From positions 224,001-288,000 of the forward strand of contig VMGC01000001.1 in assembly GCA_007376385.1 (NCBI GenBank): DNA of 64,000 nt, in the 5' to 3' direction. Within the stretch, counting starts at the first letter, position 1. Each line of letters begins with the position of its first letter. The notes under the pieces were generated by a model that had not been told where the DNA came from, did not search any database, and worked only from the letters and a program-made list of their open reading frames with translations. This DNA comes from Parcubacteria group bacterium Gr01-1014_8 (GTDB lineage Bacteria > Patescibacteriota > Minisyncoccia > Phycocordibacterales > UBA2100). Below, in pieces: positions 7,643-59,513 of this stretch. The translations under genes and the position numbers were made by a program.

Positions 7643-8649
7643 TACTGGACTTATTAAAGAAACTCGTTGAGAAAAAAGACCTGACTGTTTCGGAGTCGGA
7701 GCAATTCCTATTGGAAGTGATGAAAGGGGGAGTGAGCCCGACATGTATCGCAAGTATTCTCGTTGCACTGCGAATGAAAGGCGAGTCAGTTGATGAGATA
7801 GTCGGATTCCTCCGCGCGATGCGCGCGAACATGCTGAAAGTGAATGCGCCGGACGCGATTGATATCGTAGGAACCGGTGGGGACGGAAGCGGCACGTTCA
7901 ATATCTCGACTACCGCGGCTTTTGTGGTTGCAGGGGTGGGAGTAAAAGTGGCAAAGCACGGTAACCGTGCGGCAAGCAGCAAGTGCGGAAGCGCGGATGT
8001 TTTGGAAGCACTTGGCGTGAATATTCAGCTTACGAAGGAACAGGCGGAAGAAGTGTTTAAAAATGTCGGGCTCGTCTTTATGATGGCGCCTCTGTATCAC
8101 CCCGCGATGAAAGAGGTTGCCGCCGTCAGAGAAGAATTAAAGATACGAACTGTTTTTAATGTCCTAGGTCCATTCGCGAACCCTGCTTCGACGCAAACAC
8201 AATTAACTGGTGTTCCGAATAAGGCCATCGCAAAGAAATTGGCGGAGGTCGGCAAGCGGCTTGGCTACAAACGACTTCTCGTTGTCTCGAGCAATGATGG
8301 GATGGACGAGATAAGTTTGTCGTCAAAGACACATATGTTCGATGTCTATCGCGGCAAAGTAAAGAAATCGCTTATCGACCCGAAAAGATATGGATTCAAG
8401 CGCTCATCCAAGAAAGATATTCTTGGTGGGGATGCAACCGAGAACGCAGCTATTATCCGAGCGATTTTGAGTGGTGGAAGCGGGGCACAGCGTGACGTCG
8501 TTGTCTTTAACAGCGCGTTCGCGCTCTATGCTGCTGGCGCAGCCGCTTCAATTCAAGAGGGAATAGAGAAAGCTAAGCAGTCTATTGATAGCGGCAGCGC
8601 GCTTCGCGTATTAGAGTCATTGATACGGGAGACACAGAACTTCGCGTAA
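7639..8649 (+). CDS. trpD: Anthranilate phosphoribosyltransferase
   Basis: GTGGDGSGTFNISTTAAFVVAG and KHGNRAASSKCGSADVLEALG motifs. Confidence 0.9.
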   Translation: MILDLLKKLVEKKDLTVSESEQFLLEVMKGGVSPTCIASILVALRMKGESVDEIVGFLRAMRANMLKVNAPDAIDIVGTGGDGSGTFNISTTAAFVVAGVGVKVAKHGNRAASSKCGSADVLEALGVNIQLTKEQAEEVFKNVGLVFMMAPLYHPAMKEVAAVREELKIRTVFNVLGPFANPASTQTQLTGVPNKAIAKKLAEVGKRLGYKRLLVVSSNDGMDEISLSSKTHMFDVYRGKVKKSLIDPKRYGFKRSSKKDILGGDATENAAIIRAILSGGSGAQRDVVVFNSAFALYAAGAAASIQEGIEKAKQSIDSGSALRVLESLIRETQNFA

Positions 8650-8656
8650 CTAACCT

Positions 8657-9937
8657 ATGATCAGTGTTCAACTACAGCCGCTAACTGGCCCCGCCAATAC
8701 GAGCGTCGATATACCCGGCTCTAAAAGCTATACAAACCGCGCACTCCTCATGGCGACGATGTGCCGTGAGGCTGTTCGGATCCTTAAACCGCTGGTGAGT
8801 GACGACACGAGGGCGATGCTCAACTGTTTAAAGACTCTTGGTATCAAGGTTGAGGAAAAGAGCGACGAGATAACGGTGATAGGGCATATAACGGACGTGA
8901 AGAATCAGGACTACGAACTTGATGCCGACCTCTCAGGCACAACGATTCGATTTATGCTCGCCCTTTCATGTGTTTTGCCCGGTGTTCAAACATTGGTTGG
9001 AAAAGAAGGTCTCAACAAGCGCCCTATCAAGGATCTCGTTGATGGTCTTAGACAGCTCGGTGCAAAGATAGAATACCTTGAAAAAGAAGGCTTTCCGCCT
9101 CTTCGAGTTTCTTCGTATGAATTGAATCCCGGGACTATCCGCCTGAAGGGAGGGGTAAGCAGTCAATTTTTGTCTGCCATTTTGATGATTGTTCCGCAGG
9201 TGGGGGATGTCACGCTCGAGGTCGAGGGTGAGCAAATATCAAAGCCCTACATAGACATGACAATAGATACTATGTCGCGCTTCGGTGTATCAGTTGCTAA
9301 TTTGAACTACCAGCGGTACCGCGTCTCGGTTGGACAGGTCTACCAAGGTACTGAATATACGGTCGAAGGGGACGTTTCGAGCGCTTCGTACTTCGCTGCG
9401 ATTGCCGCGCTCACGAAGTCTCGCATAACGCTCGCGAACATGAATCCGCAGTCCGTGCAGGCTGACATGCATTTTTTTCACATTCTTGAGGACATGGGCG
9501 CGTCTGTCAGCTATGAGAAAGACAGAATAGTCGTGGTGGGAAATGGCGTGATGCCAATGGAAGTAGATATGGAAAATTGTCCCGACCAGGCTCAAACAAT
9601 GGCGGTTCTCTCTGCGTTTGCTCCGGGCGTAACGAAACTTTCTGGGGTGCGCTCGCTTCGTCTGAAAGAGACAGAAAGGGTGAAAGCGCTTGAAGCGGAG
9701 CTTGCGAAGATGGGCATCAAGACCGAATCAACTGAAGATATGCTCACGATATACGGAGGTTCGCCAAAAGCCGCAGCAATAGACACCTACGGCGACCACA
9801 GGATGGCAATGTCTTTCGCGGTTGCGGGGGCAATGCTTGATGGCATGCAAATAAACGATTTCGGCGTTGTAGGAAAGACATTTCCTCAATTTTGGGAGAA
9901 ACTCGAATCAATTGGAGTCGGAGTAAAAAGGGTATGA
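8657..9937 (+). CDS. aroA: 3-phosphoshikimate 1-carboxyvinyltransferase (EPSP synthase)
   Basis: GSKSYTNRALLMA, LNKRPI and DHRMAMSFAVAG motifs. Embedded inside the trp gene string. Confidence 0.9.
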   Translation: MISVQLQPLTGPANTSVDIPGSKSYTNRALLMATMCREAVRILKPLVSDDTRAMLNCLKTLGIKVEEKSDEITVIGHITDVKNQDYELDADLSGTTIRFMLALSCVLPGVQTLVGKEGLNKRPIKDLVDGLRQLGAKIEYLEKEGFPPLRVSSYELNPGTIRLKGGVSSQFLSAILMIVPQVGDVTLEVEGEQISKPYIDMTIDTMSRFGVSVANLNYQRYRVSVGQVYQGTEYTVEGDVSSASYFAAIAALTKSRITLANMNPQSVQADMHFFHILEDMGASVSYEKDRIVVVGNGVMPMEVDMENCPDQAQTMAVLSAFAPGVTKLSGVRSLRLKETERVKALEAELAKMGIKTESTEDMLTIYGGSPKAAAIDTYGDHRMAMSFAVAGAMLDGMQINDFGVVGKTFPQFWEKLESIGVGVKRV

Positions 9938-10458
9938 ATATCGTACTCATCGGAATGCGCGGGAGCGGTAAATCGACTGTTGCAAAAATGCTTGCGAAGA
10001 AGCTTGGCCGGAAATATATGGAATTGGACGACGAGATAGCCAAAAAAGCCGGCGCGCGCATCTCTGAAGTCGTGGAGCAGCAGGGTTGGAATTATTTCCG
10101 CGTGAGAGAAGCGGAGGTAGTCGAAGAAGCTGCTGCAGTAGACAATACGGTCATCTCCACCGGGGGTGGTGTTGTCTTGCAGAGTAAAAACGTTCAAGCA
10201 TTGAAGAAAAACGGTATCTGTATCTTTTTAAGCGCGCCAATCGAGGAACTGCTTCCACGCATTGGTGAATCGTCTACCAGACCGCGGCTTACAGGTGCAA
10301 AGACGATGAAAGAGGAATTGGAGAAAGTATGGGAAGAGCGCAAGCCGTTGTACGAAAAAGCAGCGGACGAGACTATTGATACTACAGGCATGAAACCGAA
10401 AGATATTGCCGAGGAAATAGTGCAGAGACTTAAAAAGAAGCATATAGTGCAAATCTGA
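9934..10458 (+). CDS. aroK: Shikimate kinase
   Basis: MNIVLIGMRGSGKSTVAKMLAKKLG P-loop. ATG 9934 overlaps the aroA stop (ATGA). The listed ORF from 9892 is an in-frame upstream extension. Confidence 0.85.
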   Translation: MNIVLIGMRGSGKSTVAKMLAKKLGRKYMELDDEIAKKAGARISEVVEQQGWNYFRVREAEVVEEAAAVDNTVISTGGGVVLQSKNVQALKKNGICIFLSAPIEELLPRIGESSTRPRLTGAKTMKEELEKVWEERKPLYEKAADETIDTTGMKPKDIAEEIVQRLKKKHIVQI

Positions 10459-10459
10459 T

Positions 10460-11542
10460 ATGGCAGGAAATTCATTCGGACAACTTTTTAGAATAACGAC
10501 ATTTGGTGAATCGCACGGCGGGGCTGTTGGGGTTGTACTGGATGGATGTCCGCCGGGGATTCAAATAACCGAAGAAGAAATCCAAATTCAGCTCGACCGT
10601 CGGAAGCCGGGGCAAAGTCATATCACGACGTCTCGCAAAGAGGCAGATAAAATAAAGATACTTTCTGGCTACTATGAGGGAAAAACGACTGGGACACCGA
10701 TACTTCTTATCGCATACAACGAAGATGCTAAGTCGGGGGATTACAAGGAACTGATGAAAGCGTACCGCCCGTCGCATGCAGATTACACGTACGAAGCAAA
10801 ATACGGCTTCCGCGATTGGCGTGGAAGCGGCCGCGCTTCGGCGCGCGAGACGCTTGCGCGCGTAGCAGCCGCGGCGATTGCACAGAAATATCTACAAGAA
10901 AAAGAGGGAATTGAGTGCCTGAGTTTCGTTGAACAAGTCGGCGACATCAAGGCGGATGTTGATGTTGAGAAAGTGCAGATGAAAGACATAGAATCCAACA
11001 TCATTCGATGTCCCGACCAGAAAGTGGCGGAGAAGATGATCGCGCTTGTTGAGAAAACGAAAGCAGAGGGTGATTCCATCGGCGGTATCATTCAGGGTGT
11101 TATTCGTGGCGTGCCAGCGGGCCTAGGCGAGCCGGTATTCGATAAAATTCCTGCTGACCTTGCGAAAGCAATGTTAAGCATCAATGCAGTCAAGGGATTC
11201 GAAATGGGGCTTGGGTTTCGAAGCGTCGGCATGAAAGGAAGTCAGCACAACGACCCGATGGAAATCCGTGATGGGAAAATTCGGACGAAAAAGAATGACG
11301 CCGGAGGCACATATGGTGGCATTTCAAGCGGCGAAACGATTCATTTCCGCGTTGCGTTCAAACCTGTCTCAACTATTGCAAAAGAGCAGGACACTGTCAC
11401 AACTGAAAAGAAGGCAACAAAACTTGCAGCCGCCGGTCGCCACGACCCGTGCGTCCTCCCCCGCGCCGTCCCCATCGTCGACGCCATGTCCGCGCTCGTC
11501 ATCATGGATCACTATCTTCGCAACAAGGCGCAAAATAAGTAG
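10460..11542 (+). CDS. aroC: Chorismate synthase
   Basis: FGESHGGAVGVVLDGCPPG N-terminus and GRHDPCV motif. Confidence 0.9.
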   Translation: MAGNSFGQLFRITTFGESHGGAVGVVLDGCPPGIQITEEEIQIQLDRRKPGQSHITTSRKEADKIKILSGYYEGKTTGTPILLIAYNEDAKSGDYKELMKAYRPSHADYTYEAKYGFRDWRGSGRASARETLARVAAAAIAQKYLQEKEGIECLSFVEQVGDIKADVDVEKVQMKDIESNIIRCPDQKVAEKMIALVEKTKAEGDSIGGIIQGVIRGVPAGLGEPVFDKIPADLAKAMLSINAVKGFEMGLGFRSVGMKGSQHNDPMEIRDGKIRTKKNDAGGTYGGISSGETIHFRVAFKPVSTIAKEQDTVTTEKKATKLAAAGRHDPCVLPRAVPIVDAMSALVIMDHYLRNKAQNK

Positions 11543-11554
11543 TACAATTTCCGA

Positions 11555-12058
11555 ATGAGCATGGAAGGCGGACCAAAACCTAGGAAAGGAATTCTTTCTG
11601 GTTTACAGAGATGGCTTGAACAACGAAAAGAACGAATAACGCTTGAAGAGGTAAGAGATCACTTGAGCTTTAATCTGTGGAAAACAGCCGATGCGGTGTG
11701 CACAGAAATCTTGGAAAATCGATTAGCGCAAGGCCGCACAGCTCCTAAATACACGAAGCTTAATCTCGATCGATCAAATTACTCTGAGTGGCAGTCGTAT
11801 TTTGATATGCGTTCGAGAACATCGAACTTTTGCATCCGCTTGTTTTCGATGAGGGAAGCGGATGTTAAGCAAGAAAATGAACTTACAGATCAGGAAAGGC
11901 AATGGGCTCGAACAGGTCCATCAGATGACGATCGCAGAAAGACTTATTTTGCTAATACTGGACATCATATCCCGTATTTTCGGCTTGTTCGAGGAGGTAG
12001 TCGACGTCGTGTTGAACAAAGTGAAGGAGATTCGTCGCCGATTACGGTTAAATCTTAA
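11555..12058 (+). CDS. Hypothetical protein (167 aa) at the 3' end of the trp/aro gene string
   Basis: An ORF without recognisable motifs fills the gap between aroC and the convergent trpA. Confidence 0.35.
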   Translation: MSMEGGPKPRKGILSGLQRWLEQRKERITLEEVRDHLSFNLWKTADAVCTEILENRLAQGRTAPKYTKLNLDRSNYSEWQSYFDMRSRTSNFCIRLFSMREADVKQENELTDQERQWARTGPSDDDRRKTYFANTGHHIPYFRLVRGGSRRRVEQSEGDSSPITVKS

Positions 12059-12064
12059 TTTGAT

Positions 12065-12889
12065 CTATAATTTCAGTTGAGACATCGTTTTTTCCACCGC
12101 GGAAATCTTCTTGTTCTTCTTTAGGGCGACAACAAACACACTTCCTGCGATCACAATATCCGCTACTTTGGACAAATCTTTTACATCCTTTTTTGACTTA
12201 ACACCGAATCCAACGGCCACGGGAAGTTCAGAAGTGCTTCGCAGTGTTTTTATAAATGCGGGCAAATCGGACGCAAACACACTTGTTGCTCCGGTGATTC
12301 CTTGTCGCGTTGTGCAGTACCAGAACCCCGTTGCGTCTTTTGCGAGCGTTTCAAGGCGTTCCTTTGGAACGCCGGGGGATACAACAGGAATTAATGCAAT
12401 ACCAGCTGCCTTGCACGTCGCAAGCAGAGACCAGCCTTCCATCGTGTCGAACGGACAATCTGGAACAATTAATCCGACCGCCCCAGCGTTGGAGATGGTC
12501 TTGATGAATTTTGGGATGCCCATCCGGTAAATAGGGTTGGCGTAAGTCATCACAACGACCGGCTTCTTGAATTTCGCAACCTTTTTTACGACTTCTAGAG
12601 CTTTTTTGACTGTCGCGCCTTTCTTGAGCGCCTCTTCGCACGCGACCGCAATTGTTGGGCCATCAGCCATTGGGTCGGAGAAGGGGATTTGCACTTCGAT
12701 AATATCTGCTCCACCTTTGGCGAGTGCCTTTGCGACCTGGATGGATTCAGAAATCGTCGGAAGCCCCGCGATCATGTGCGCCATGAAAAGAGATTTTTTC
12801 CCTCTGTTTTCCAATAAAACCATCAAGGCGACGCCTTGATGGTTTTTCTCAATGGAAGTTGTCATTCTAGTCATAGCGGTTGTATTCAT
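12065..12889 (-). CDS. trpA: Tryptophan synthase alpha chain
   Basis: LIAGLPTISESIQVAKALAKGGADIIEVQIPFSDPMADGP matches the TrpA N-terminal region. The true start may be the internal Met at 12823, because the 12889 start overlaps trpB by 23 nt. Confidence 0.85.
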   Translation of the reverse strand: MNTTAMTRMTTSIEKNHQGVALMVLLENRGKKSLFMAHMIAGLPTISESIQVAKALAKGGADIIEVQIPFSDPMADGPTIAVACEEALKKGATVKKALEVVKKVAKFKKPVVVMTYANPIYRMGIPKFIKTISNAGAVGLIVPDCPFDTMEGWSLLATCKAAGIALIPVVSPGVPKERLETLAKDATGFWYCTTRQGITGATSVFASDLPAFIKTLRSTSELPVAVGFGVKSKKDVKDLSKVADIVIAGSVFVVALKKNKKISAVEKTMSQLKL

Positions 12890-14078
12890 CTTTGAGGAAG
12901 TCTCTGAAGCTTTTGTCTTTGAAGGCGCGGGCGAAGTTGAAAAGGTCTTTGTCGCCGCGGCCGGAGAGTGTAGCGACGATGATGTGATCCTTTTTCATTT
13001 TTGGGGCGATTTTTATCACATGTGCAAGTGCGTGCGCGCTCTCGAGCGCGGAAATTACTCCTTCGAGTTTCGCGAAGAAATCTACCGCCGCAACCGCTTC
13101 TGTATCCAGCGCATACGTAAGTTCCAAGCGCCCTTCTTGGTAGAGGTCTGCGAGTTCGGGACCAAGTCCTGGGTAATCGAGTCCGGCGGAAATAGAATGC
13201 GTGGGCGCAATTTGACCGTCGTCCGTCTGCAGAAAGAGAGATTTGTATCCCTGAAATATCCCCAACACTCCTGCTATTTTTCGGGATGCATGCTGTCCAA
13301 CCTTTTTTCCAATTCCTCCCGCCTCCACTCCTATCAATCGCACTGAAGATTCAGGCACAAAGTCATAAAAACTGCCGATGGCGTTTGAGCCTCCGCCGAC
13401 GCAGGCAACGACTACATCCGGGAGCTTGCCTTCGCGCTCCTGTAGTTCAGAACGAATTTCTCGTCCAATGATGGATTGGAAGTATCGGTTCATTTCGGGA
13501 TATGGTTTTGGGCCAAGCACGGAGCCGATGCAGTAATGCGCTTTCTCAAGATTTTCCATCCAGAATTTTAGCGCCTCGTTCACCGCGTCTTTCAGAGTCT
13601 TGCTTCCGTATTCAACGGGAATTACTTTCGCACCGAGTCGTTCCATCAAGAATACATTTGGTCTCTGGCGGCGTATGTCTTCGTTTCCCATGAATACTAC
13701 ACACTCAAGTCCTAGTTTTGCCGCTACCGTTGCTGTTGCGACGCCGTGTTGTCCTGCGCCAGTTTCTGCGATGAGCATCTTTTTGCCCAGTTTTTTCGCC
13801 AGGAGCCCTTGTCCGAGGCAGTGCGTTATCTTATGAGCACCAGTATGGTTTGCGCCCTCGTTCTTCAGATATATCTTCGCGCCGCCAAGTTTCTTCGTTG
13901 CCCGCTCTGCAAAAATGAGGGGAGTAGGACGGCCAGAAAAATTCTTTAAGAGGTCTCTGAATTCCTTTTGGAACTCGGGGTCTCTTTTTGCTTTCTCAAA
14001 TGCGGCGATAAGCTGCTGCAGGGTCTCCCATAGCATTTCGGGTATATATGCTCCGCCGAATGTCTCACGCTCTGTCAT
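12867..14078 (-). CDS. trpB: Tryptophan synthase beta chain
   Basis: HTGAHKITHCLGQ PLP-lysine motif and GGGSNAIG. Confidence 0.9.
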   Translation of the reverse strand: MTERETFGGAYIPEMLWETLQQLIAAFEKAKRDPEFQKEFRDLLKNFSGRPTPLIFAERATKKLGGAKIYLKNEGANHTGAHKITHCLGQGLLAKKLGKKMLIAETGAGQHGVATATVAAKLGLECVVFMGNEDIRRQRPNVFLMERLGAKVIPVEYGSKTLKDAVNEALKFWMENLEKAHYCIGSVLGPKPYPEMNRYFQSIIGREIRSELQEREGKLPDVVVACVGGGSNAIGSFYDFVPESSVRLIGVEAGGIGKKVGQHASRKIAGVLGIFQGYKSLFLQTDDGQIAPTHSISAGLDYPGLGPELADLYQEGRLELTYALDTEAVAAVDFFAKLEGVISALESAHALAHVIKIAPKMKKDHIIVATLSGRGDKDLFNFARAFKDKSFRDFLKDEYNRYD

Positions 14079-14863
14079 ATCATTGCTTTCTGAAGTTCTC
14101 GTATCTTCTCGAGGGGGTCATTAGACTCCAGAATCGCAGTTCCAACAAGGATTCCTCGGACGCCGGTTTTGCGAACACGAAGCACATCATCAGCCGTGTA
14201 AATTCCTGATTCACTCACGACGGGTATGTCTTTGGGGATGGAGTTCATCAGCGTTTCTGTTGTGCTGAGGTCTATTTCCATAGTTCGGAGGTTGCGGTTG
14301 TTGATGCCGATGAGTTTTGCATTCGCTTCTATCGCCTTTTTCACATCTTCTTCGTCGTGCACTTCAACGAGACTTCCGATGCCAAGCGATTCTCCAAGGG
14401 ATATGAGTTCAGCGAGCTTGTCTTTCTCAAGCACCGCTGCGATGAGAAGAAACGCATCGCCACCCCCGGCAAGTGTTTCGTAGACCTGGTATTCATCAAC
14501 GATAAAATCTTTTCTTAGAATTGCTTGCGGAACTTTTTCTCGCACGTGCTGCAACAATTCAAGACTCCCGCCGAAATATTTGTTGTCAGTAAGAACGGAA
14601 ATCGCGTCCGCTGCACTTTCGGCGTACAGTTCTGCAACTTTGAGCGGGGAATCGATGAGTTTACCGGCGGAAGGAGAGCGCGGCTTTATCTCTGCAATGA
14701 GAACGCTTGATCCGGGGTCGCTAAATCGCGAGCGAAATGGTCTCGCTTTTCGGTATTGTTTTTGCTCCGATATACGTGCTCGCAAGACCTCAAGCGGCAC
14801 TTTCTTCATCCTCTCTTCCAGTTCGGAGCGGGTATTAGATACTATTTCATCGAGTACTGTCAT
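14075..14863 (-). CDS. trpC: Indole-3-glycerol phosphate synthase
   Basis: IAEIKPRSPS motif and IGINNRNL. Its stop overlaps the trpB start. Confidence 0.85.
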   Translation of the reverse strand: MTVLDEIVSNTRSELEERMKKVPLEVLRARISEQKQYRKARPFRSRFSDPGSSVLIAEIKPRSPSAGKLIDSPLKVAELYAESAADAISVLTDNKYFGGSLELLQHVREKVPQAILRKDFIVDEYQVYETLAGGGDAFLLIAAVLEKDKLAELISLGESLGIGSLVEVHDEEDVKKAIEANAKLIGINNRNLRTMEIDLSTTETLMNSIPKDIPVVSESGIYTADDVLRVRKTGVRGILVGTAILESNDPLEKIRELQKAMI

Positions 14864-14935
14864 GCTCGGCTATTATAGTGATTATCACGAATTTACCTAG
14901 CGTTTTAGCCCTTTGCAGTCTACGATGGAGCATTC

Positions 14936-15574
14936 ATGGTTAAGGTGAAGATCTGCGGCAATACGAGCAAGGAAACTGCGCTTGCCGCGCTTTCGTATGG
15001 TGCAGATATGCTTGGATTCATTGTGAATGTTTCTGGATCAAAGACTTCCATAACGCCAGAGCAGGCGCGTGAAATTATTTCTGCGCTGCCGTCTGGCGAG
15101 ACTGTGGTGGTTACAACTGCAACAGATGCTCAGGAAATAAAAAGACTTGCACAGGAAACTGGCGTTTCAACAATTCAATACCATGGTGAAGTGTCACCGG
15201 AGACAATTGCAAAGATAAAAGATGAGCTACCGAATATCGCCGCGTGGAAAGTAATCCATGTGAAAGATGAGAGTGCGATTGATGAAGCAAGGAAATATGA
15301 AAGTATCGTAGACGCGATACTTTTGGACACAGCACAGGGCGGCCAAATCGGCGGAACTGGTACTACGCATGACTGGAATATTAGCCGCATAATTGCAGGT
15401 GATTATTCCAAACCGATCATCTTGGCCGGGGGACTGAATCCAGACAATGTGGAGGAAGCAATACGGGTCGTGAAGCCCTATGCGGTAGACGTGAACTCCG
15501 GTGTTACTAACTCGGATGGCTCAAAGGACCTTGAAAAAGTGAAGCTTTTCATAGAACGTGCAAAGGGCAAATGA
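14936..15574 (+). CDS. trpF: Phosphoribosylanthranilate isomerase
   Basis: MVKVKICGNTSKETALAALSYGADMLGFIV N-terminus, and AGGLNPDNV. Confidence 0.85.
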   Translation: MVKVKICGNTSKETALAALSYGADMLGFIVNVSGSKTSITPEQAREIISALPSGETVVVTTATDAQEIKRLAQETGVSTIQYHGEVSPETIAKIKDELPNIAAWKVIHVKDESAIDEARKYESIVDAILLDTAQGGQIGGTGTTHDWNISRIIAGDYSKPIILAGGLNPDNVEEAIRVVKPYAVDVNSGVTNSDGSKDLEKVKLFIERAKGK

Positions 15575-15619: not shown

Positions 15620-16340
15620 GTCCTGAACTACCGACCTCGGTGGTTTTTTTGACCCTCCTGTGAGGAGGGACAGAAGGCTTGAACTTTGACAACTGAATAT
15701 GAAAAATTGTACGCAAAACCAAAAAAGAAATTGGTAAGTAAAATTGTTGCCGGCGCTCGCTCGGAATTGAAAATTTATTTTCATTTCGCTCGCTCGCATG
15801 GGCAATAAGAATTCTTGTTGTTCTCAAGTTAGGAACAATAAGACACACACAAAAGCAAGAAAACAGAAAATACATATTGAGGTTCCAGGAGGATCTCATG
15901 TGTAAGTAAACAGTAATAACGAGACAAAAGATCCCCCAAGGGGACTGCGACTTTCTACGATTCAAATGAATCGTGAAAGTCGGGAGATATACATTCTTTT
16001 GTTTCGTCCATCCTAGAGATATTGAAGCAATTCAAATTCTTGAAAGTGGTGTAAAAACCATTTTTACTTAGAGTTTGATCCTAGCTCAGGGTGAATGCTG
16101 GCGGTATGGATAAGGCATGCAAGTCGAATGGGTTAGACCCATGGCAGACGAGGTAGTAACAGGTAGGTACGTCCCCGGAAGTCGGGCATAACCAGCCGAA
16201 AGGTTGGATAATTCCCGATGGTCTCGCAAGAGTAAAGATTTATCGCTTCCGGAGCGGCCTGCTTTGTATCAGCTTGTTGGTGAGGTAACGGCTCACCAAG
16301 GCTATGACGCATAGGGGACCTGAGAGGGTGACCCCCACCG

Positions 16341-16377
<37 letters not shown>

Positions 16378-16891
16378 TGCAGCCGAGAATATTCGACAAT
16401 GGGCGAAAGCCTGATCGAGCGATACCGCGTGGTGGATGAAGCGCTTCGGCGCGTAAACACCTTTTATGAGGGAAGAAATTTTGACGGTACCTCATGAATA
16501 AGGGGCTCCTAACTCTGTGCCAGCAGGAGCGGTAATACAGAGGCCCCAAGCATTACCCGGAATTACTGGGCGTAAAGGGTGCGTAGGTGGTCATATTAGT
16601 CGCCTGTTAAAACCCACGGCTCAACTGTGGAACCGCGGGCGAAACGGTATGACTAGAGAGAGTGAGAGGTGAATGGAACTCATGGTGTAGGGGTGAAATC
16701 CGTTGATATCATGGGGAACACCGAAAGCGAAGGCAATTCACTGGCACTTTTCTGACACTCAAGCACGAAAGCGTGGGTAGCGAACGGGATTAGATACCCC
16801 GGTAGTCCACGCCCTAAACGATGATCGCTGGATTTGGGGAGTATCGACCCTCTCCGAGTCGAAGCTAACGCGTTAAGCGATCCGCCTGGGT

Positions 16892-16923
<32 letters not shown>

Positions 16924-17390
16924 AGACGGGGGCTTGCACAAGTGGTGGAGCGTGTGGCTCAATTCGTCGCTAAGCGAAGAACCTTACCAGGGCTAGAAAT
17001 CCAGCTGCATACTTTGGGAAACCTTAGTAGCCTTCGAGGGTGCTGGACAGGTGATGCATGGCTGTCGTCAGTTCGTGGTTTGAATCGTTCCCTTCAGTGG
17101 GGTAACGAACGCAACCCTCGTTGCCTGTTATATTTGTCAGGCGAGACTGCCCCCTCACGGGGGAGGAAGGTGAGGATGACGCCAAGTCAGCATGTCCCTC
17201 TGATGTCCTGGGCTGCACACGCGCTACAATCGCCGTTACAACGAGGCGCAACGTCGTAAGACCGAGCAAATCTTTCAAAAGCGGCGCCAGTTCGGATTGA
17301 GGTCTGCAACCCGACCTCATGAAGCCGGAATCACTAGTAATCGCGGGTCAGCCACACCGCGGTGAATACGTTCTCAAGCCTTGTACTCAC

Positions 17391-18234
17391 AATAAAAGCG
17401 CACAGCAGTGTACATATCTATGCGGTTAAAATCCGCACCTCTCTTTCGTACAGAGAGCGTAGCAGAAGGATAGTTGTTATCCGCGAGGATGATAATGGAG
17501 GATCCTAATGCAAAGAGCAGCCATTTCGCACAAAAGCCGACCGACCTGTCAATGGGTGGTGAGGATAGGGAAGGTCCTAGAAAGGCAAGAAAATGGATGC
17601 CTAGAACAGATACGCACATAACCTGTGGAGATCTGACGCTGTTATCCCAAAGATGGGATATGATGAATCTGACGCAGCGTCAGAAGTCAGCTGAGTCATA
17701 GTATTTGCAGATATGCAAAAAAGGACTCACTCAAAGCAAAATCTTAGTCCAGATTATGTTGTTGGACTCGTAGATGGTGAAGGAAGCTTTACTGTCTACG
17801 TAAGAAATCCAGACATAGAGAAAAAAGTCGCTCGAAGAGTGGTTGTAGAGCCAAAATTCTACATAAAACTAATCGAACGCGACAAAGATATTCTCTATGC
17901 ACTTCGAGATTTCTTCGGATGTGGAAGTATTTACTTCCAAAAAGATAATCGTCCGAATCATCAACATTGCTATCGTTACGAGGTCTTCCGGTGGGAAGAA
18001 CTTCAAACGATAATCATTCCGTTCTTCAAGCGGCACGTTCTCAAATTCGCGTCAAAACGGCACGACTTTGAAGTGTTTTGCATGATGATGGAGCTTCTCA
18101 AAAAAGAAGCACATCGAACGGAAAAAGGACTACGAGAGTTGTTTAAGTTGAAACAACGCATGCATTGAGCTCGCGTAGTGCGGGAAATCCGCTCGCTACG
18201 TGGGAACATCAATTCTTAGATTCAAGAAGATAAT
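17391..18234 (+). mobile_element. Intervening sequence (intron) in the 16S rRNA near E. coli position ~1390-1400, carrying a homing endonuclease gene
   Basis: The 16S collinearity breaks after CCTTGTACTCAC (17390) and resumes at CGCCCGTCAACTC (18235). The 844-nt insert contains the LAGLIDADG ORF. Confidence 0.6.
17713..18168 (+). CDS. LAGLIDADG homing endonuclease (single-motif type), intron-encoded
   Basis: 151 aa. VVGLVDGEGSF is a LAGLIDADG motif. The gene lies entirely inside the 16S insertion. Confidence 0.8.
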   Translation: MQKRTHSKQNLSPDYVVGLVDGEGSFTVYVRNPDIEKKVARRVVVEPKFYIKLIERDKDILYALRDFFGCGSIYFQKDNRPNHQHCYRYEVFRWEELQTIIIPFFKRHVLKFASKRHDFEVFCMMMELLKKEAHRTEKGLRELFKLKQRMH

Positions 18235-29630: not shown

Positions 29631-30386
29631 GTGAAAAGAGGACCGAAACCGAAAGGGCAGGTAAGTACAAATTGGTCATCGGACTTTGCTTACGTCATTG
29701 GATTAATTACTGCCGATGGTTGTCTGCTTAATGATGGCCGACACATTGATTTTACTTCAAAAGATCGAGAGCAAGTTGCAACGTTCAAAAAATGCTTAAA
29801 GCTCAAAGCCAAGATCGGCATCAAACATTCTGGGATCGGAAACGAGTACTACCGCATACAATTTGGCGATGTTTTGTTTTATGCATTTCTTGTTAGCATC
29901 GGCTTATCTCCTGCAAAATCAAAAACAATCTCTCACGTGCTTGTTCCTGATGAATATTTTCTGGATTTTCTCAGAGGTTACTTCGATGGAGATGGCACAA
30001 GTTATTCTTTTTACGATTCAATCTTCCCAAAAAGTTACCGATTCTATATATCGTTTATGTCGGCAAGTCCCGTCTATATTCATTGGCTAAGAAAAAAGAT
30101 AAGTGATTTTTTACACATTCAGGGGCATCTCGACCGCAGTGGTAACAAGCCGTACATTCAACTCAAATTCTCAAAGAAAGAAGCAGTGATACTAGCCAAA
30201 GGTATGTACTATTCTAGCGGCATTCCGTGGTTAACGCGGAAGCATTTGAAGATTCAGCGATCTTTACGCATAATCGAGGCAGGCCGCGGTGGTGAAATTG
30301 GTAAACACGCTGCGTTCAGAACGCAGTTCTCGCAAGGGGTTGGGAGTTCGAGTCTCCCCCGCGGCACATCAAAATTTGCTCATTAA
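29631..30386 (+). CDS. LAGLIDADG homing endonuclease (double-motif type); reading frame runs through the downstream tRNA-Leu
   Basis: YVIGLITADGCLL and LRGYFDGDGTSY are two LAGLIDADG motifs. The frame is already open from 29610 inside the tRNA fragment. The last ~35 codons are tRNA-Leu sequence, and the stop at 30384 lies past the tRNA. Confidence 0.75.
   Translation: MKRGPKPKGQVSTNWSSDFAYVIGLITADGCLLNDGRHIDFTSKDREQVATFKKCLKLKAKIGIKHSGIGNEYYRIQFGDVLFYAFLVSIGLSPAKSKTISHVLVPDEYFLDFLRGYFDGDGTSYSFYDSIFPKSYRFYISFMSASPVYIHWLRKKISDFLHIQGHLDRSGNKPYIQLKFSKKEAVILAKGMYYSSGIPWLTRKHLKIQRSLRIIEAGRGGEIGKHAAFRTQFSQGVGSSSLPRGTSKFAH
30283..30366 (+). tRNA. tRNA-Leu (anticodon CAG), class II with long variable arm
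   Basis: GCCGCGG acceptor, GTGAAATTGGTAAACAC D-arm, CTGCG-TTCAGAA-CGCAG anticodon arm (CAG), ~15-nt variable arm, GGGAGTTCGAGTCTCCC T-arm, CCGCGGC-A 3' acceptor. Confidence 0.8.
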
Positions 30387-50316: not shown

Positions 50317-51162
50317 ATGGGATTATTTGACTGGGCCAGAGGAAAATCCAACGAAAAATTGCGAGCGGGCCGGCGGGCTCGCGAGCAAATTATGTCTGCT
50401 GCACATGCAAAAGCGATTGCTGCAGCACAAAGCGAGACCATCCATGATGACTGGGCGTATATCGATTCTCCATTAGAGCTGCCTCCGGCACATATTGGGT
50501 CGTTCGATGAGACGTTCAAGAGAGTTCTTCCGGTAGAGACCTTGCCGCACGAGAGGAATTTGCGACGATATATCGAGCGCACATTTGAGCATAAGAAAGG
50601 CGGCGTTATAGGCATCGAATTTGGCGGCCCTGCGTCAAGGCTTTTTGCCGGCTTCACTCCCGGTTTTTTTAAAAAGTCGCTTGGCGTATCAATCAGGGAT
50701 TATAGAAAAGAAGAAGTGCGGCAATCTGACGCCAAACGGCACCATGCTGTCATAACTGGGAATATGTTGTGGGAAGAGACGGAAGAACGTGTGGACGAAT
50801 GGTTAGGGGGGGAAAAAGTGGATGTAGGATTTCAACGGCTTTTGGACGGGTTCGAGTTCATTCCTATAGAGCCGTATACGCTCGGTGCATGGATACAGCG
50901 GCGATACCGGCAGTTAAGCGACGTCGGCCTGCTCGTTCTGCAGGTTCCGCTTACTATGCAACCGTTCCTTAAGCCATGGTCCGAAGCAATACAAGCGAAG
51001 TGTGGTGATAGGATACAATTTCAATTCGTCGAAGGAACGAACGATCGATCAACGTTCGAAACAGGAGCGCTGCGAATTCAAAAAATGAAAGGAGCGCCCG
51101 AAGAATTGCCACCCTTAGATGCACGTACGATTCGAAATATAACTGAAATTTCTCGGAAATGA
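50317..51162 (+). CDS. Hypothetical protein (281 aa)
   Basis: No recognisable motifs. Start is 3 nt after the previous stop. Confidence 0.45.
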   Translation: MGLFDWARGKSNEKLRAGRRAREQIMSAAHAKAIAAAQSETIHDDWAYIDSPLELPPAHIGSFDETFKRVLPVETLPHERNLRRYIERTFEHKKGGVIGIEFGGPASRLFAGFTPGFFKKSLGVSIRDYRKEEVRQSDAKRHHAVITGNMLWEETEERVDEWLGGEKVDVGFQRLLDGFEFIPIEPYTLGAWIQRRYRQLSDVGLLVLQVPLTMQPFLKPWSEAIQAKCGDRIQFQFVEGTNDRSTFETGALRIQKMKGAPEELPPLDARTIRNITEISRK

Positions 51163-51191: not shown

Positions 51192-52820
51192 ATGCACGTC
51201 GATCAGAATAATCCGGACCGTCGTGTCACCTATTTTGCGTCCACCCATACGCGCGGCCAGCGCGAGCTTTTTGGCATTCGTGGGGAGGATCGAGGCAAGC
51301 ATATATACCTCATTGGAAAGACCGGTATGGGCAAGTCGACCCTGATGGAGAATATGGCAATTCAGGACATACAGAATGGCGAGGGCATCTGTTTTATCGA
51401 CCCGCACGGAGCAACAGCAGAAAAACTTCTCGACTTTGTACCCTACGAGCGCATCAAGGATGTCGTGTATTTTGCGCCATTTGATACCGATTACCCGTTC
51501 GGCTTTAACGTGATGGAGGACGTAGGGTATGACAAACGCCATCTTGTCGTTTCAGGACTCATCGGTGCGTTCAAGCGTATCTGGGTAGATATGTGGAGTG
51601 CTCGGATGGAATACATCCTCCAGAATACTCTCCTTGCACTTCTTGAATACCCCGACGCAACGCTCCTCGACGTGAATCGGATGCTCTCGAACAAAGAATT
51701 TCGGAAAGCGGTGATCGAGAAGATCTCGGACCCTATCGTCAAAACATTCTGGAAAGAAGAATTTGCGACCTACACCGACCGTTATACGCAAGAGGCGACG
51801 CCCGCGATACAAAACAAGGTCGGTCAATTCACTGCGAACCCGTTGGTGCGCAATATTGTGGGACAGCCAAAATCATCATTTGACCTGCGAAAGATGATGG
51901 ATGAGAAAAAGATATTCATTATCAACCTCTCGAAAGGAAGAATGGGCGAGTCGAACGCGTCGCTTCTGGGCAGCATGCTTACGGTAAAGATCTATCTCGC
52001 TGCCATGTCGCGCGCAGACGAACCCGCCTCGCGTCTCGCACAATTGCCGCGCGTCTATTTCTATGTTGATGAGTTCCAATCGATGATGAATGAGGCTTTT
52101 GCCGACATCCTTTCCGAGTCGCGAAAATATAAACTTGCGCTCACTCTCGCGAACCAATACATCGAACAGATGGAAGAAAATGTGCGTAACGCGGTTTTTG
52201 GCAACGTGGGAACGTTGATAGCGTTCCGTGTCGGCCCGTTTGACGCGGAAGTGTTAAAGACGATTTTCGAGCCGACATTCACGCCAGAGGATCTTGTGGG
52301 ATTAGGCGTTGGCCACATCTATTTGACGCTCATGATAGATGGAGTCGGTTCACAGCCTTTTTCTGCGGAGACGATACCTCCCATAGACTTGCCTTCTGTC
52401 TCGTATCGGCAAGATGTCGTGCATTATTCGCGGGCAACATACGGGCGTCCTCGGGCGGAAATGGAGACGCTTGTATTGAAGCGGCAGGAGGATTTTGCGC
52501 CGCTTTCCAAACAGGACAGGAAGAAGGCGCAAGCGGCAAAAAGGCCGGATGAGGCGGAGATGCCACATAGAGAGGAGGGTTCGAGTGCGGATCGCGCCGC
52601 CTTGCGTGCGGCATTAAGTGCGGCCAAGACAGAGGCGCCGAACATGAATGGCAAGACGCCAATTGAGATCCTTCGCGCACGCAAGGCGGCGAAGGAAGCG
52701 CGCTCATCGCACGGCGCTGATGCACAATCGCCTCCAAAGGCGGCGCAGCAGGAACAGCGAGAAGGAGAAATATCACCGGAAGTGCTGCAAAGGATCCTTC
52801 GCGGCAACGATCCAGTATGA
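51192..52820 (+). CDS. Soluble TraD/VirD4-like P-loop ATPase (FtsK/HerA superfamily, DUF87/TraG-D_C-type) with a low-complexity Lys/Ala-rich tail
   Basis: Walker A YLIGKTGMGKST...FIDPHG and Walker B VYFYVDEFQ. There are no N-terminal TM helices. The C-terminal ~120 aa are K/A/E-rich. Confidence 0.55.
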   Translation: MHVDQNNPDRRVTYFASTHTRGQRELFGIRGEDRGKHIYLIGKTGMGKSTLMENMAIQDIQNGEGICFIDPHGATAEKLLDFVPYERIKDVVYFAPFDTDYPFGFNVMEDVGYDKRHLVVSGLIGAFKRIWVDMWSARMEYILQNTLLALLEYPDATLLDVNRMLSNKEFRKAVIEKISDPIVKTFWKEEFATYTDRYTQEATPAIQNKVGQFTANPLVRNIVGQPKSSFDLRKMMDEKKIFIINLSKGRMGESNASLLGSMLTVKIYLAAMSRADEPASRLAQLPRVYFYVDEFQSMMNEAFADILSESRKYKLALTLANQYIEQMEENVRNAVFGNVGTLIAFRVGPFDAEVLKTIFEPTFTPEDLVGLGVGHIYLTLMIDGVGSQPFSAETIPPIDLPSVSYRQDVVHYSRATYGRPRAEMETLVLKRQEDFAPLSKQDRKKAQAAKRPDEAEMPHREEGSSADRAALRAALSAAKTEAPNMNGKTPIEILRARKAAKEARSSHGADAQSPPKAAQQEQREGEISPEVLQRILRGNDPV

Positions 52821-53764
52821 TTCCGCAGAGAACTCTGTTGTTATCAATAGCAGCGTTGTTTGTTCCGGGTGCTGTGTCCGCGCAAGTCGTCATTACCGAA
52901 TTGATGTACGACCTTTCTGAGGGCTCTGATACAGGGCGCGAATGGATAGAAGTATGGAATAGCGGAACAGAGCCCATAGAGCTTACAAACTGGAAGTTGT
53001 TAGAAGCGAATACGAACCATGGCATAAACGCAGTAGGAACTGAAACGCTGGCCCCCGGCGAGTATGCAGTTATCGCTGACAATCCGGCAAAATTTAAAAA
53101 CGATTGGCCTTCTTTTTCGGGAATATTATTTGATTCTTCTTTTTCTCTGAATAATGCCGGTGAACAGTTGATTCTGCGTTGCTGTGGAAAAGAGCTAAGC
53201 GATAAGGATTCGGTGACGTATTCGAGCGAGTGGGGAGGTGCGGGAGACGGCGCGTCGCTCGCGAAAAGCGGTTCATCGTTCATTGCGGCGCAGCCTTCGC
53301 CGGGCTCGGGCTCAGTTGTTGCATTTGCTGTTCCTGAACCTGAATTGCGGTCAGAACCGCCACCTCAACAAAAAGCAGTACAGCAAGAAATTGCAAAGAA
53401 ATCGGAACCGGACAATAAAGAGAGTCCCGCACAAGATCCGAGCGCGGATGTTGCTTCGCAAGTTACAACAGCTCCATCTGTGCAAAAACAAGATGAGGCT
53501 CCAAAAAAGATAGCAAAGAAAACCACCCCTTCTGCTCAAAAAGACCCCGTGCAGAATTCTGAAGAGGAGGTCATTGTTGAGGCCACCGATACAAAGGGCG
53601 TAATAAGCGATAGCAATCAGGCCGCTGCGGTAGCGAGCACGGAAACGAATAACGTGATGTGGTGGGGAGGAGCAGTCACGCTTACAGCCCTCGGGGCAGG
53701 GGCAGTAGTCTTTCTACAGCGAAGCAGAAAAAAGGAATGGGATATTGTTGAGGAAAAAGAGTAG
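52817..53764 (+). CDS. Lamin-tail-domain (LTD) surface protein with signal peptide and C-terminal TM anchor
   Basis: Signal peptide, VVITELMYDLSEGSDTGREWIEVWNSGTEPIELTNWKL...APGEYAVIA (LTD signature), an acidic/low-complexity linker and a C-terminal hydrophobic helix. The start overlaps the ATPase stop. Confidence 0.7.
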   Translation: MIPQRTLLLSIAALFVPGAVSAQVVITELMYDLSEGSDTGREWIEVWNSGTEPIELTNWKLLEANTNHGINAVGTETLAPGEYAVIADNPAKFKNDWPSFSGILFDSSFSLNNAGEQLILRCCGKELSDKDSVTYSSEWGGAGDGASLAKSGSSFIAAQPSPGSGSVVAFAVPEPELRSEPPPQQKAVQQEIAKKSEPDNKESPAQDPSADVASQVTTAPSVQKQDEAPKKIAKKTTPSAQKDPVQNSEEEVIVEATDTKGVISDSNQAAAVASTETNNVMWWGGAVTLTALGAGAVVFLQRSRKKEWDIVEEKE

Positions 53765-57542: not shown

Positions 57543-59513
57543 ATGCGCATCTTAAGTATTTCCAGTGATTGGAACGTCTTTAGTGAAGACAGTGCCGTCG
57601 CGAGACGCCAGCGTCTGCAGGCTTCAACCGTAGAGCGGTTCGATGTGTTCATGCCGCATGGGCCCGACGAGACCATTCATATCGCAGGAAACGGGACCAT
57701 GCGCGGGTTTGGTCCCGGCAAATTGCGAGGCATGTTTCGCATGTTATGGTCCGCATTCAGGATGCAAAGACCGGATATCGTTTCTTCACAAGACCCATTC
57801 TTTCTAGGACTTCTTGCCTGGAAGATCGCAAAAGTGCGGGGAGCAAAACTGCATATACAGATACACACCGATCTTTTTGACCCGCATTTTGCAGCGCATT
57901 CTTTCACCAATCGAATTCGATTGCTGCTCGCGCGTTTCGTTCTCTCGCAAGCAGATTGCGTTCGCGTCGTGTCGGAGCGCATTAAGCGCTCATTGGATAA
58001 ATTGCATCTTCGTGTCCCGGTTTCTGTTCTTCCGGTTTTTATTGATGCGGAGGTCATTGACGCGGCGCAACCTTTGCAGAAACGCAGCGTATATCCCGAT
58101 TTCGAGAAAATAATTCTAGTCGTCAGCAGACTCGAGCCGGAAAAGAATGTTACTGCCGCCCTTCGCGCTCTGCCGGACATATTGAAAGCGCAGCCGGGCA
58201 CCGGGCTCGTCATCGTCGGCGATGGCTCTTTGCGCGAGCAGCTCGAACGTCTTGCGAAAGAGCTCGGCATTGAGAAACGCGTTGCTTTTGCAGGCTCTAC
58301 AAAGCCATATCCATACTACAAAGCTTCAGATCTATTACTTTCGACCTCTGATTACGAAGGATATGGGATGGTGGTGGTAGAAGCGCTCTATGCAGGATGT
58401 CCTGTCATCTCGTTCGATACTGGCGTCGCTCGCGAAGCAGGTGCCATAATCGTGACTCCAGAGGTTCTTGCGAGCACTGCGGCTGCCACGTTATCAGAAG
58501 GCCGCCGTGGGAAACTCGCTTTTACTTTGCCGAGCGAACAGGAATATCGTGACCTATGGCACTCACAGATCGCGCTTACGCTGGCACTGAAGAGTTCTGC
58601 CTCCGCGCCAAAAGCGGCATCGAGAAAGGCGTTGAAAATAGGTTTTATCGGGCAAGGCTTCATCGGCAAGAATTACGCGGATGACCTCGAGCGACGCGGT
58701 ATCTCGGTCACACGGTATGCTCTCGAAGAACCGTATCGGCAAAATAAAGACAAGATAAAAGATCGCAACATCGTTTTCATTGCCGTTCCAACACCGACCA
58801 CACCGAAAGGGTTCGACTATTCGATTGTGCGAGAGGCTGTCGGTCTTGTCGGGAAGGGAAGTGTTGCCGTCATCAAATCCACGCTTGCCCCGGGCACGAC
58901 AGAAAAGATACAGAAAGAATTCCCGGGCGTCATCGTGATGCACTCTCCCGAATTTCTGCGGGAAGCAACGGCGGCGTTTGATGCTGCGAGACCGGATAGG
59001 AATGTCATCGGGCTTGCCATCGATTCGCCCGAGAACAGAGAGCGTGCAAAGGACGTTCTTTCCATTCTGCCGTCTGCTCCGTTCGAGCTCATTTCAACGT
59101 CGAGAGAAGCGGAACTTATTAAGTACGCGGGGAATGCGTGGCTGTATATGAAAGTCGTATACGCGAATATGCTGTACGACCTTTCAGAGCGTTTGCATAT
59201 CAATTATCAAAGCGTGCGAGAGGGTCTTGCCGCGGACCCGCGCGTTGGAAGGTCGCACCTAGATCCGATCCACGCCAGCGGGCATCCTGGAGCTAATCCG
59301 GGTCGTGGGGCGGGAGGTCACTGTTTCATCAAAGATTTTGCCGCACTTCGCATGGAGTATGAGCAAGCTTTGCCGGATGATACTGCCGGAATCGCAGCCT
59401 TCCGTAAACTCGAGGAGAAAAATGTGCAGCTGCTTCTTGAGAGCGACAAAGACCTCGAACTCCTGCGCGGTGTATACGGAGATGAACTAGAGAATTTCCG
59501 AAGGAAGAAATAA
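57543..59513 (+). CDS. Fusion protein: N-terminal GT4 glycosyltransferase plus C-terminal UDP-glucose/GDP-mannose dehydrogenase-like domain
   Basis: Residues 1-330: GT4 (EGYGMVVVEALYAGCPVIS). Residues ~345-656: KIGFIGQGFIGKNYADDL NAD-binding, IVFIAVPTP, STLAPGTT, and catalytic-Cys motif GAGGHCFIKD (compare UGDH GGSCFxKD). Only ~65 aa follow the Cys, so the C-terminal UDP-binding domain looks truncated. Confidence 0.65.
   Translation: MRILSISSDWNVFSEDSAVARRQRLQASTVERFDVFMPHGPDETIHIAGNGTMRGFGPGKLRGMFRMLWSAFRMQRPDIVSSQDPFFLGLLAWKIAKVRGAKLHIQIHTDLFDPHFAAHSFTNRIRLLLARFVLSQADCVRVVSERIKRSLDKLHLRVPVSVLPVFIDAEVIDAAQPLQKRSVYPDFEKIILVVSRLEPEKNVTAALRALPDILKAQPGTGLVIVGDGSLREQLERLAKELGIEKRVAFAGSTKPYPYYKASDLLLSTSDYEGYGMVVVEALYAGCPVISFDTGVAREAGAIIVTPEVLASTAAATLSEGRRGKLAFTLPSEQEYRDLWHSQIALTLALKSSASAPKAASRKALKIGFIGQGFIGKNYADDLERRGISVTRYALEEPYRQNKDKIKDRNIVFIAVPTPTTPKGFDYSIVREAVGLVGKGSVAVIKSTLAPGTTEKIQKEFPGVIVMHSPEFLREATAAFDAARPDRNVIGLAIDSPENRERAKDVLSILPSAPFELISTSREAELIKYAGNAWLYMKVVYANMLYDLSERLHINYQSVREGLAADPRVGRSHLDPIHASGHPGANPGRGAGGHCFIKDFAALRMEYEQALPDDTAGIAAFRKLEEKNVQLLLESDKDLELLRGVYGDELENFRRKK

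Follow-up and report, generated by a model that had tools for sequence, protein, structure and literature searches.

The stretch of DNA analysed here, referred to as the window, comprises 64,000 nucleotides (positions 224,001 to 288,000 of contig VMGC01000001.1, assembly GCA_007376385.1) of Parcubacteria group bacterium Gr01-1014_8, which belongs to the CPR (candidate phyla radiation; also called Patescibacteria). Its forward strand carries two adjacent open reading frames (ORFs), one encoding an ATPase from the family of type IV coupling proteins (T4CPs) and the other, referred to as the partner, encoding a surface protein with a lamin-tail domain (LTD). An earlier reading made from the letters alone (the sequence-only reading) had placed these two ORFs at 51192-52820 and 52817-53764, with products of 542 and 315 amino acids (aa), and the coordinates were confirmed. 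The features of the pair, including transmembrane (TM) segments, are as follows:

51192-52820, + strand: ATPase ORF, 542 aa; VirD4/TrwB-like P-loop ATPase of the T4CP family, no TM domain
51315-51338, + strand: Walker A of the ATPase, GKTGMGKS (aa 42-49), found by regular expression on the translation; invariant in both homolog alignments
51528-51902, + strand: all-alpha insertion in the nucleotide-binding domain of the ATPase (aa 113-237), from the AlphaFold2 (AF2) model; corresponds to the T4CP all-alpha domain
52056-52073, + strand: Walker B of the ATPase, YFYVDE (aa 289-294); D293, E294 and F295 invariant in the homolog alignments
52479-52817, + strand: C-terminal ATPase tail (aa 430-542), variable and of low complexity, from composition and alignment
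52656-52685, + strand: ATPase tail motif TPIEILRARK, consensus SPxxILRxRK; P490 and R495 invariant in the homolog alignment
52764-52805, + strand: near-C-terminal amphipathic motif of the ATPase, GEISPEVLQRILRG (aa 525-538); E526 and L532 at least 90% conserved
52817-52820, + strand: ATGA overlap of the ATPase stop (TGA, 52818-52820) and the partner start (ATG, 52817-52819)
52817-53764, + strand: partner ORF, 315 aa; type-I single-pass surface protein with signal peptide, LTD, stalk, TM helix and cytoplasmic tail
52817-52882, + strand: aa 1-22 of the partner, a predicted Sec signal peptide cut after VSA, with a hydropathy of 2.11 over aa 8-26
52874-53221, + strand: extracellular LTD of the partner (aa 20-135); PF00932, 54.1 bits (cutoff 34.3), E=2.3e-14
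53261-53656, + strand: low-complexity stalk of the partner, rich in Ala, Ser, Pro, Lys, Gln and Glu (aa 149-280), from composition
53660-53716, + strand: C-terminal Gly/Ala-rich TM helix of the partner, following WW (aa 282-300)
53717-53761, + strand: cytoplasmic tail of the partner, QRSRKKEWDIVEEKE; consensus RRxGKxEWDI(I/V)EE

The sequence-only reading had assigned the ATPase to the VirD4/TraD-like class, and both profile matches and fold uphold this against an unrelated AAA family. The Pfam models TrwB_AAD_bind (42 bits, cutoff 20.5, with an alignment covering aa 36-346), T4SS-DNA_transf (30.4 bits, cutoff 20.1), TraG-D_C (25.3 bits, cutoff 22) and DUF87 (25.6 bits) all matched above their gathering cutoffs; the NCBIfam matches to TraD and VirD4-like models were sub-threshold, and a search of the family profile against PDB sequences returned none at E<=0.01, the best weak match being TrwB (E=0.019, P-loop only). 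An AF2 alignment of close homologs alone gave a model with a pLDDT of 46.5. With a second alignment, diversified by adding a 40%-identical alphaproteobacterial clade, the core (aa 1-440) was modelled with a pLDDT of 90 and a pTM of 0.89 as a RecA-like domain with an all-alpha insertion, the helices of which sit between strands 91-94 and 241-245, and TrwB was the top Foldseek match of this model. By this fold, a RecA-like domain with its insertion, the ATPase falls into the VirB4/VirD4 clade, within which the sequence models assign it to the VirD4-type coupling proteins.

Several other identities were tried and rejected. For VirB4/TraC, the TIGR00929 model (VirB4_CagE) scored 18.7 bits against a cutoff of 643, and the N-terminal domain of VirB4 is missing, since only 41 residues precede Walker A. 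The FtsK_SpoIIIE model did not class the protein among the FtsK/SpoIIIE DNA translocases, and the NCBIfam match to CedD covers only the P-loop (23 bits, cutoff 600). The ATPase is also matched by phrog_5156, a phage-protein family of 824 positions and unknown function (via the C-terminal half, E=7.5e-59), and by the PADLOC models mad8 of the MADS defence system (E=1.9e-16, 58.5 bits) and HerA (26.5 bits); these matches suggest that long-form relatives of the ATPase, described below, circulate in phage- or defence-annotated collections.

The ATPase has no membrane anchor, as had been read from the letters: no TM segment was found, the maximum 19-residue Kyte-Doolittle hydropathy being 1.47, within a core beta-strand, and Walker A begins at residue 42. 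In most of 74 homologs Walker A likewise lies at residues 40-60, and larger positions most likely reflect over-extended ORF calls. The tail had been called Lys/Ala-rich, which is roughly right: it holds for Ala (19%), with Arg (11%) and Glu (11%) ahead of Lys (9%). Column identity in the tail drops to 13-44%, with gaps, and the tail differs in length between homologs, the full-length proteins ranging from 542 to 821 aa. The near-C-terminal amphipathic motif (GEVSxExLxxVLxG) also occurs in partner-less relatives bearing DUF8128; it is family-wide, not partner-specific, and was therefore rejected as a specific docking site for the partner tail.

The partner was found to be an LTD protein with a signal peptide and a C-terminal anchor, in agreement with the sequence-only reading. 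Its N-terminus, MIPQRTLLLSIAALFVPGAVSA followed by QV, resembles a signal peptide, and orthologous partners repeat the junction of A-x-A with Q-V-V-I-[ST]-E, so residues 1-22 are predicted to be cleaved as a Sec signal. For the LTD, an iterated hidden Markov model built in this analysis gives aa 17-148 (E=5.8e-57). The stalk presumably spans the wall; longer orthologous partners have a PKD domain in its place, together with a second LTD-like domain. At the C-terminus, 65 partners share the TM consensus WWLGAxxLAxxxxGAxxxA (first W in 58, second W in 48) and a tail in which E(-1) is kept in 57, I(+2) in 63 and E(+4) in 60 of the 65; E(-1), E(+4) and the first W were not imposed by the search pattern. 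The tail motif was found once in the window. A scan of metagenome contigs with back-translated KEWDIIEE gave nine matches, four of them real tails and two evaluable, both of which lie downstream of an ATPase; this is consistent with pairing but underpowered. A profile of the 45-residue C-terminal module, which is short and compositionally biased, retrieved only three fragments from a database of 5.8 billion proteins. A sortase- or exosortase-type sorting signal was considered and rejected, the LAETG match being sub-threshold (14.3 bits against 30, E=0.026), and the conserved motif of the partner, unlike such signals, follows the TM helix on the cytoplasmic side.

We then turn to the linkage of the two genes. 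A partner ortholog lies directly downstream of the ATPase gene in 69 of the 70 evaluable species-level related genomes. These figures derive from 73 related loci with an intact ATPase ORF, among which 64 have a complete downstream partner, a further five were counted as paired, their partner being truncated where the contig stops or separated from the ATPase gene by an insertion of one or two small genes, and three have no downstream sequence that could be judged. The sole locus truly lacking a partner is L052, where the 1.7 kb between the ATPase and epimerase genes (7866-9547) holds only a 368-aa ORF on the reverse strand. The pair is also kept in four distant loci at 59% (L086), 55% (L099), 50% (L087) and 46% (L102) ATPase identity, and in the last three it stands in unrelated neighbourhoods (Peptidase_M23/SecA in L099, GT2 and capsule genes in L087, and a mechanosensitive (MS) channel and sigma factor in L102); the linkage is therefore independent of the surrounding syntenic block. 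These results demonstrate that the adjacency of ATPase and partner is far beyond chance, and that the pairing seen in the sequence-only reading extends to relatives. That reading had further called the two genes translationally coupled, which the ATGA overlap makes plausible for the window, but clear ATGA overlaps were otherwise detected in only four relatives, and 55 of 64 partners begin within 100 nt of the ATPase gene or overlap it, by rough estimates of the starts. The general arrangement is thus close operonic adjacency. Scans for promoters and terminators performed no better than shuffled controls and are therefore uninformative on operon boundaries.

Many CPR relatives that are 44-50% identical to the ATPase are longer proteins of 750-1,130 aa, in which one or two N-terminal TM helices and DUF8128 (PF26449) precede the ATPase domain, and two loci (L100 and L101) encode TM+DUF8128 in a gene of its own, directly upstream of the ATPase gene. 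None of the six DUF8128-bearing genes examined, fused or split, has an LTD-type partner beside it, compared with 73 of 74 anchor-less ATPases (the 69 of 70 related loci and the four distant pairs), counts that are not phylogenetically independent. The partner and the TM+DUF8128 module therefore look mutually exclusive, and the sequences indicate that the ATPase has lost an N-terminal membrane module which its relatives keep. The family reaches beyond CPR: a 28%-identical homolog of 913 aa with the same N-terminal extension is encoded on a Bacillus plasmid of pLS20 size, just upstream of the conjugation genes TcpD/TcpE, which ties the whole ATPase family to the T4CPs of monoderm conjugation. 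A monoderm conjugation origin has been proposed for the Patescibacteria T4SS (type IV secretion system) (PMC12102498).

Further observations concern these relatives. The long-form T4CP of CPR was seen as one polypeptide, as two adjacent genes or as tandem paralogs (L100, 2260-5282; L101, 2-2514; L089, 468-5689). An apparent short form beside a long form in L089 was discarded, as this database protein (P0190) proved to be a long form called wrongly, into which the DUF8128 frame runs. A large alphaproteobacterial (Rhodobacterales) clade comprises anchor-less T4CP-like ATPases of about 385-415 aa that are about 40% identical to the CPR protein; two of these (L083, 8986-10173; L085, 6001-7251) adjoin DUF3768, resolvase/recombinase and integrase genes, L085 with a Replic_Relax relaxase in addition, and these short ATPases look like the coupling proteins of mobilisable elements.

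Within the close clade, the TM helix and the RRxGKxEWDI(I/V)EE tail of the partner stay constant while the N-terminal ectodomain varies. This ectodomain may be an LTD, a ComEA-type helix-hairpin-helix (HhH) domain or an Ig-like domain (weak Big_1 matches), usually followed by PKD and a weak second LTD. A Pfam census of the 65 partners counted LTD in 52, PKD in 43 and HHH_3 in seven, and five of six HhH-type partners tested scored above the curated cutoff of the ComEA-HhH model TIGR00426. The replacement of the LTD by a ComEA-type HhH domain in orthologous partners lends support to the sequence-only reading, which had suggested, with reserve, a module for DNA uptake or translocation or for cell-cell interaction. 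No HhH match was found in the window's own partner with Pfam or NCBIfam; the relation to ComEA is one of functional analogy for this protein and of domain membership for some of its orthologs. In the neighbour-joining tree of the ATPases, which carries no bootstrap support, HhH-type partners fall at four separate places, and this suggests that the ectodomain has been swapped repeatedly between types.

Relatives of the ATPase are numerous, and the gene keeps a fixed place on the chromosome. The databases hold over 8,000 proteins that share 64% identity or more with the ATPase, those named by source coming from Parcubacteria, Kaiserbacteria and Paceibacterota; 285 GTDB species have it, and an exhaustive search of 1.84 billion representatives returned 21,040 relatives with E<=1e-3, of which 5,666 reach E<=1e-30. 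A conserved gene order runs through 80 species-level loci, namely murD, murC, rsmI, DUF4015, ATPase, partner, epimerase and glycosyltransferases. Across loci, aa 20-420 of the ATPase, its core, are 81-93% identical (median 84.5%, minimum 81%), compared with same-genome medians of 64.6% for MurC, 62.8% for RsmI and 58% for MurD; the loci were picked by ATPase similarity, and the comparison was made within genomes. The core thus evolves much more slowly than essential wall enzymes, including MurC, and this very strong conservation suggests that its role is a housekeeping one, for example in scavenging nucleotides, rather than one in a mobile element. Among the checked ORFs of the window and in the flanks of +/-6 kb, no gene for a relaxase, an integrase, a T4SS, com functions or a pilus was found, in contrast to the short alphaproteobacterial relatives, which lie in mobile elements.

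Two neighbours of the pair deserve mention. Between DUF4015 and the ATPase gene, the window holds a 281-aa ORF (50317-51162) that is shared by only one of the 80 related loci (L050) and has no match in Pfam, NCBIfam, PADLOC or PHROGs. The block of glycosyltransferase genes that is conserved downstream includes an ORF (57543-59513) for a 656-aa protein in which a GT4 glycosyltransferase is fused to a UDP-glucose/GDP-mannose dehydrogenase.

The ATPase resembles the known T4CPs (VirD4, TrwB, TraD, TraG and PcfC) in its nucleotide-binding domain with Walker A and B, its all-alpha insertion, its matches to the Pfam models of the family and its TrwB-like fold. It differs from them in lacking an N-terminal TM domain and adjacent relaxase or T4SS genes, in its fixed, housekeeping-like chromosomal context, its unusually conserved core and its pairing with a proposed surface receptor, and in a long disordered C-terminal tail with two short conserved motifs. 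Compared with the long-form T4CPs, it has a homologous ATPase domain (44-50% identity within CPR, about 28% to the Bacillus plasmid protein) and the same amphipathic motif, but has the partner in place of TM+DUF8128. An N-terminal TM domain is present in most, though not all, T4CPs, and its deletion inactivates TrwB, PcfC and MobB (PMC7431656).

We propose, tentatively and as a possibility that stops short of being probable, that the pair forms one envelope machine for DNA uptake, in which a DNA receptor on the surface tethers a motor derived from a coupling protein to the membrane. In such a machine, the cytoplasmic tail of the partner and/or its Gly/Ala-rich TM helix would recruit the soluble ATPase, presumably as a hexamer, to the membrane, and this anchoring would replace the one that the ATPase has lost. 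The ectodomain would capture extracellular double-stranded DNA at the cell surface, and the ATPase would power its passage across the membrane, most likely inward via a separately encoded channel such as ComEC, so that the pair would substitute for ComEA as receptor and for ComFA as motor. DNA is the proposed ligand because seven of the 65 partners carry HHH_3, five of the six tested pass TIGR00426, and partners of the LTD type show a weak match to the N-terminal part of ExeM, an extracellular nuclease; DNA binding by the window's own LTD is a prediction from sequence. The arrangement would parallel ComEA/ComFA/ComEC in joining a membrane-tethered extracellular DNA receptor, here proposed, to a cytoplasmic ATPase, and seven of the 65 partners indeed bear the ComEA HhH. 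Unlike ComEA, which has an N-terminal anchor, the window's partner has an LTD, a signal peptide and a C-terminal anchor, and unlike ComFA, a DEAD-box protein (PMC10633639), the motor is a T4CP of the FtsK/HerA superfamily, with comEC not found nearby. The conserved com core of CPR consists of ComEC, DprA and ComFC, with ComEA and ComFA outside it (PMC10633639), and ComEA is annotated in only about one third of CPR genomes (PMC6744442). In S. epibionticum, t4cp is, like comEC, dispensable for growth, and other T4SS genes are essential (PMC12102498, PMC10633639). The DNA-uptake reading fits both this com core and the dispensability of t4cp. The fuller version, in which Paceibacteria and Kaiserbacteria took a coupling-protein motor from a T4SS and rebuilt it as a T4SS-independent DNA importer that replaces ComEA/ComFA and supplies nucleotides, is in our view unlikely; if true, this DNA import would be the first by a member of the VirD4 family, and would fill in the missing receptor and motor of CPR competence.

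A number of results weigh against DNA uptake. The EWDIIEE tail is confined to the close clade: the distant pairs end in 'DEYAIISDIIEE' (L086) or 'EFEDWQFDE' (L099), or have no acidic motif at all (L087 and L102), and the tail, if it is a docking site, is not a universal one. By inspection, the variants of the partner tail showed no covariation with the C-terminal motif of the ATPase, a comparison that phylogeny confounds. About 13 of the 65 partners start with an Ig-like domain and not with LTD or HhH. Neither comEC, comF or dprA nor any pilus or T4SS gene was found among the checked ORFs of the window or in the +/-6 kb flanks, so the check for comEC and type IV pilus genes that the sequence-only reading had advised found none there, and the link to ComEC is purely our inference. 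The synteny with mur, DUF4015 and glycosyltransferase genes could mean an envelope function, and adhesins, too, typically contain PKD and LTD domains. The T4CPs known so far act in export, and we know of no precedent for import of the VirD4 type. Archaeal Ced and the ComB system of H. pylori are precedents of T4SS-family components that import, and do not export, DNA; Ced uses the VirB4/HerA-like CedB together with the polytopic CedA, and to our knowledge ComB has no VirD4 homolog and neither system has a single-pass partner with LTD or HhH. Both systems are cited in the reference list of PMC12102498.

As the main alternative, the pair could serve as the coupling arm of a Patescibacteria T4SS encoded elsewhere, typically near dnaA, and feed protein or DNA to VirB4/VirB6 for interaction with a host, which we consider rather doubtful. 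Here, the partner would be a membrane anchor, as TraI of pIP501 is proposed to be for TraJ, and its ectodomain would help to contact the host cell or extracellular DNA. This would agree with the ATPase belonging, as a genuine T4CP homolog, to the lineage of monoderm conjugation, with the Bacillus plasmid homolog upstream of TcpD/TcpE, and the acidic C-terminal tail of the partner resembles, by analogy, the kind of C-terminal signal that T4CPs recognise. A large distance between T4CP genes and virB4 is, moreover, frequent, and in most Patescibacteria a T4SS is encoded on the chromosome (PMC12102498). A precedent for the anchoring is also available, as TraI has been proposed as the membrane anchor of pIP501 TraJ, a T4CP without a TM domain (PMC12857230). 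Both cases combine a coupling protein lacking its membrane domain with a small, separately encoded membrane protein as the supposed recruiter; TraI, however, is a small two-TM protein without a large ectodomain from a plasmid conjugation operon, whereas the candidate anchor here is a chromosomal type-I single-pass protein with ectodomains of DNA-binding type and no T4SS genes found nearby. Against this reading, only 148 of 5,713 T4CP homologues of CPR lie near virB4, and t4cp was dispensable, with other T4SS genes essential, in what is a single genetic study (PMC12102498). In addition, no T4SS gene or relaxase was found in any of about 85 related loci, so the T4SS association expected of a T4CP is not seen, a pure anchor role leaves the swap to the ComEA HhH unexplained, and for a component that adapts to host range, one would expect a less conserved ATPase core.

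A role in the envelope or in adhesion that is unrelated to DNA, with the partner binding a host surface or wall polymers and the ATPase remodelling, secreting or signalling from the cytoplasm, seems improbable. It would account for the conserved synteny with murD, murC, the glycoside-hydrolase-like DUF4015 gene, epimerase and glycosyltransferases, as well as for the PKD domains in 43 and the Ig-like N-termini in about 13 of the 65 partners, and functions in cell-cell interaction dominate the protein families enriched in CPR (PMC6744442). It is made less likely by the HhH swap, ComEA-type HhH domains being binders of DNA and not adhesins, and by the distant pairs L087, L099 and L102, in which the two genes stay together although the mur and glycosyltransferase neighbourhood is lost; furthermore, the ATPases of the T4CP family are known as motors for the translocation of DNA or protein (PMC7431656).

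That the ATPase belongs to a defence system (HerA, MADS or Dnd-like) or is a remnant of a mobile element, adjacent to the partner without joint function, is very improbable: no other defence, phage or mobility gene is adjacent, and the partner and the upstream gene have no PADLOC matches, the chromosomal position is fixed across species with a core 81-93% identical, the partner is kept in 69 of 70 loci and in four genomic contexts (the conserved block and three others), and the defence and phage assignments were rejected with no system genes found nearby, where the neighbours are mur, rsmI, DUF4015 and glycosyltransferase genes.

As for earlier descriptions, orphan VirD4-type genes in Patescibacteria and their possible exaptation have already been published (PMC12102498). 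In open-access papers and bioRxiv, we found no description of a conserved single-pass partner with LTD or ComEA HhH, of its cytoplasmic tail or of the exclusivity with DUF8128, and no mention of 'lamin tail domain' together with CPR terms.

Other parts of the window hold features apart from the pair. A chorismate/tryptophan cluster (TrpE, TrpG, TrpD, AroA, AroK, AroC, TrpA, TrpB, TrpC and TrpF) occupies 5703-15574, with six of the ten genes confirmed by Pfam and the others read from their translations; it is unusual because CPR bacteria usually lack amino-acid biosynthesis. The 16S rRNA match at 16063-17422 spans the full Rfam model in only 1,360 nt, and it is followed by a match to group II intron domains D1-D4 (17639-17726) and a LAGLIDADG_1 endonuclease ORF (17713-18168). 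For 23S rRNA, the window gave no match. At 29631-30386 lies another ORF of LAGLIDADG type (LAGLIDADG_3, E=6e-8), and its 3' end overlaps an 84-nt tRNA gene (30283-30366).

CPR bacteria account for much of the diversity of bacteria; they are unable to make nucleotides and are believed to subsist on DNA that they scavenge. Among their VirD4-type genes, thousands are 'orphans' to which no role has been assigned (PMC12102498), and part of this family of orphan T4CPs now gains a concrete, testable architecture, consisting of an anchor-less motor and an obligatory single-pass partner. If the pair is a DNA receptor and motor, it would explain how CPR bacteria poor in ComEA bind DNA, and would represent a coupling protein that works outside conjugation and secretion; if it serves a T4SS instead, the adaptor that the Patescibacteria coupling protein has so far lacked, at the membrane and on the surface, would be identified. 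In both cases, the pair offers defined biochemical targets, namely the tail peptide (RSRKKEWDIVEEKE) for pull-downs and the ectodomains for DNA binding.

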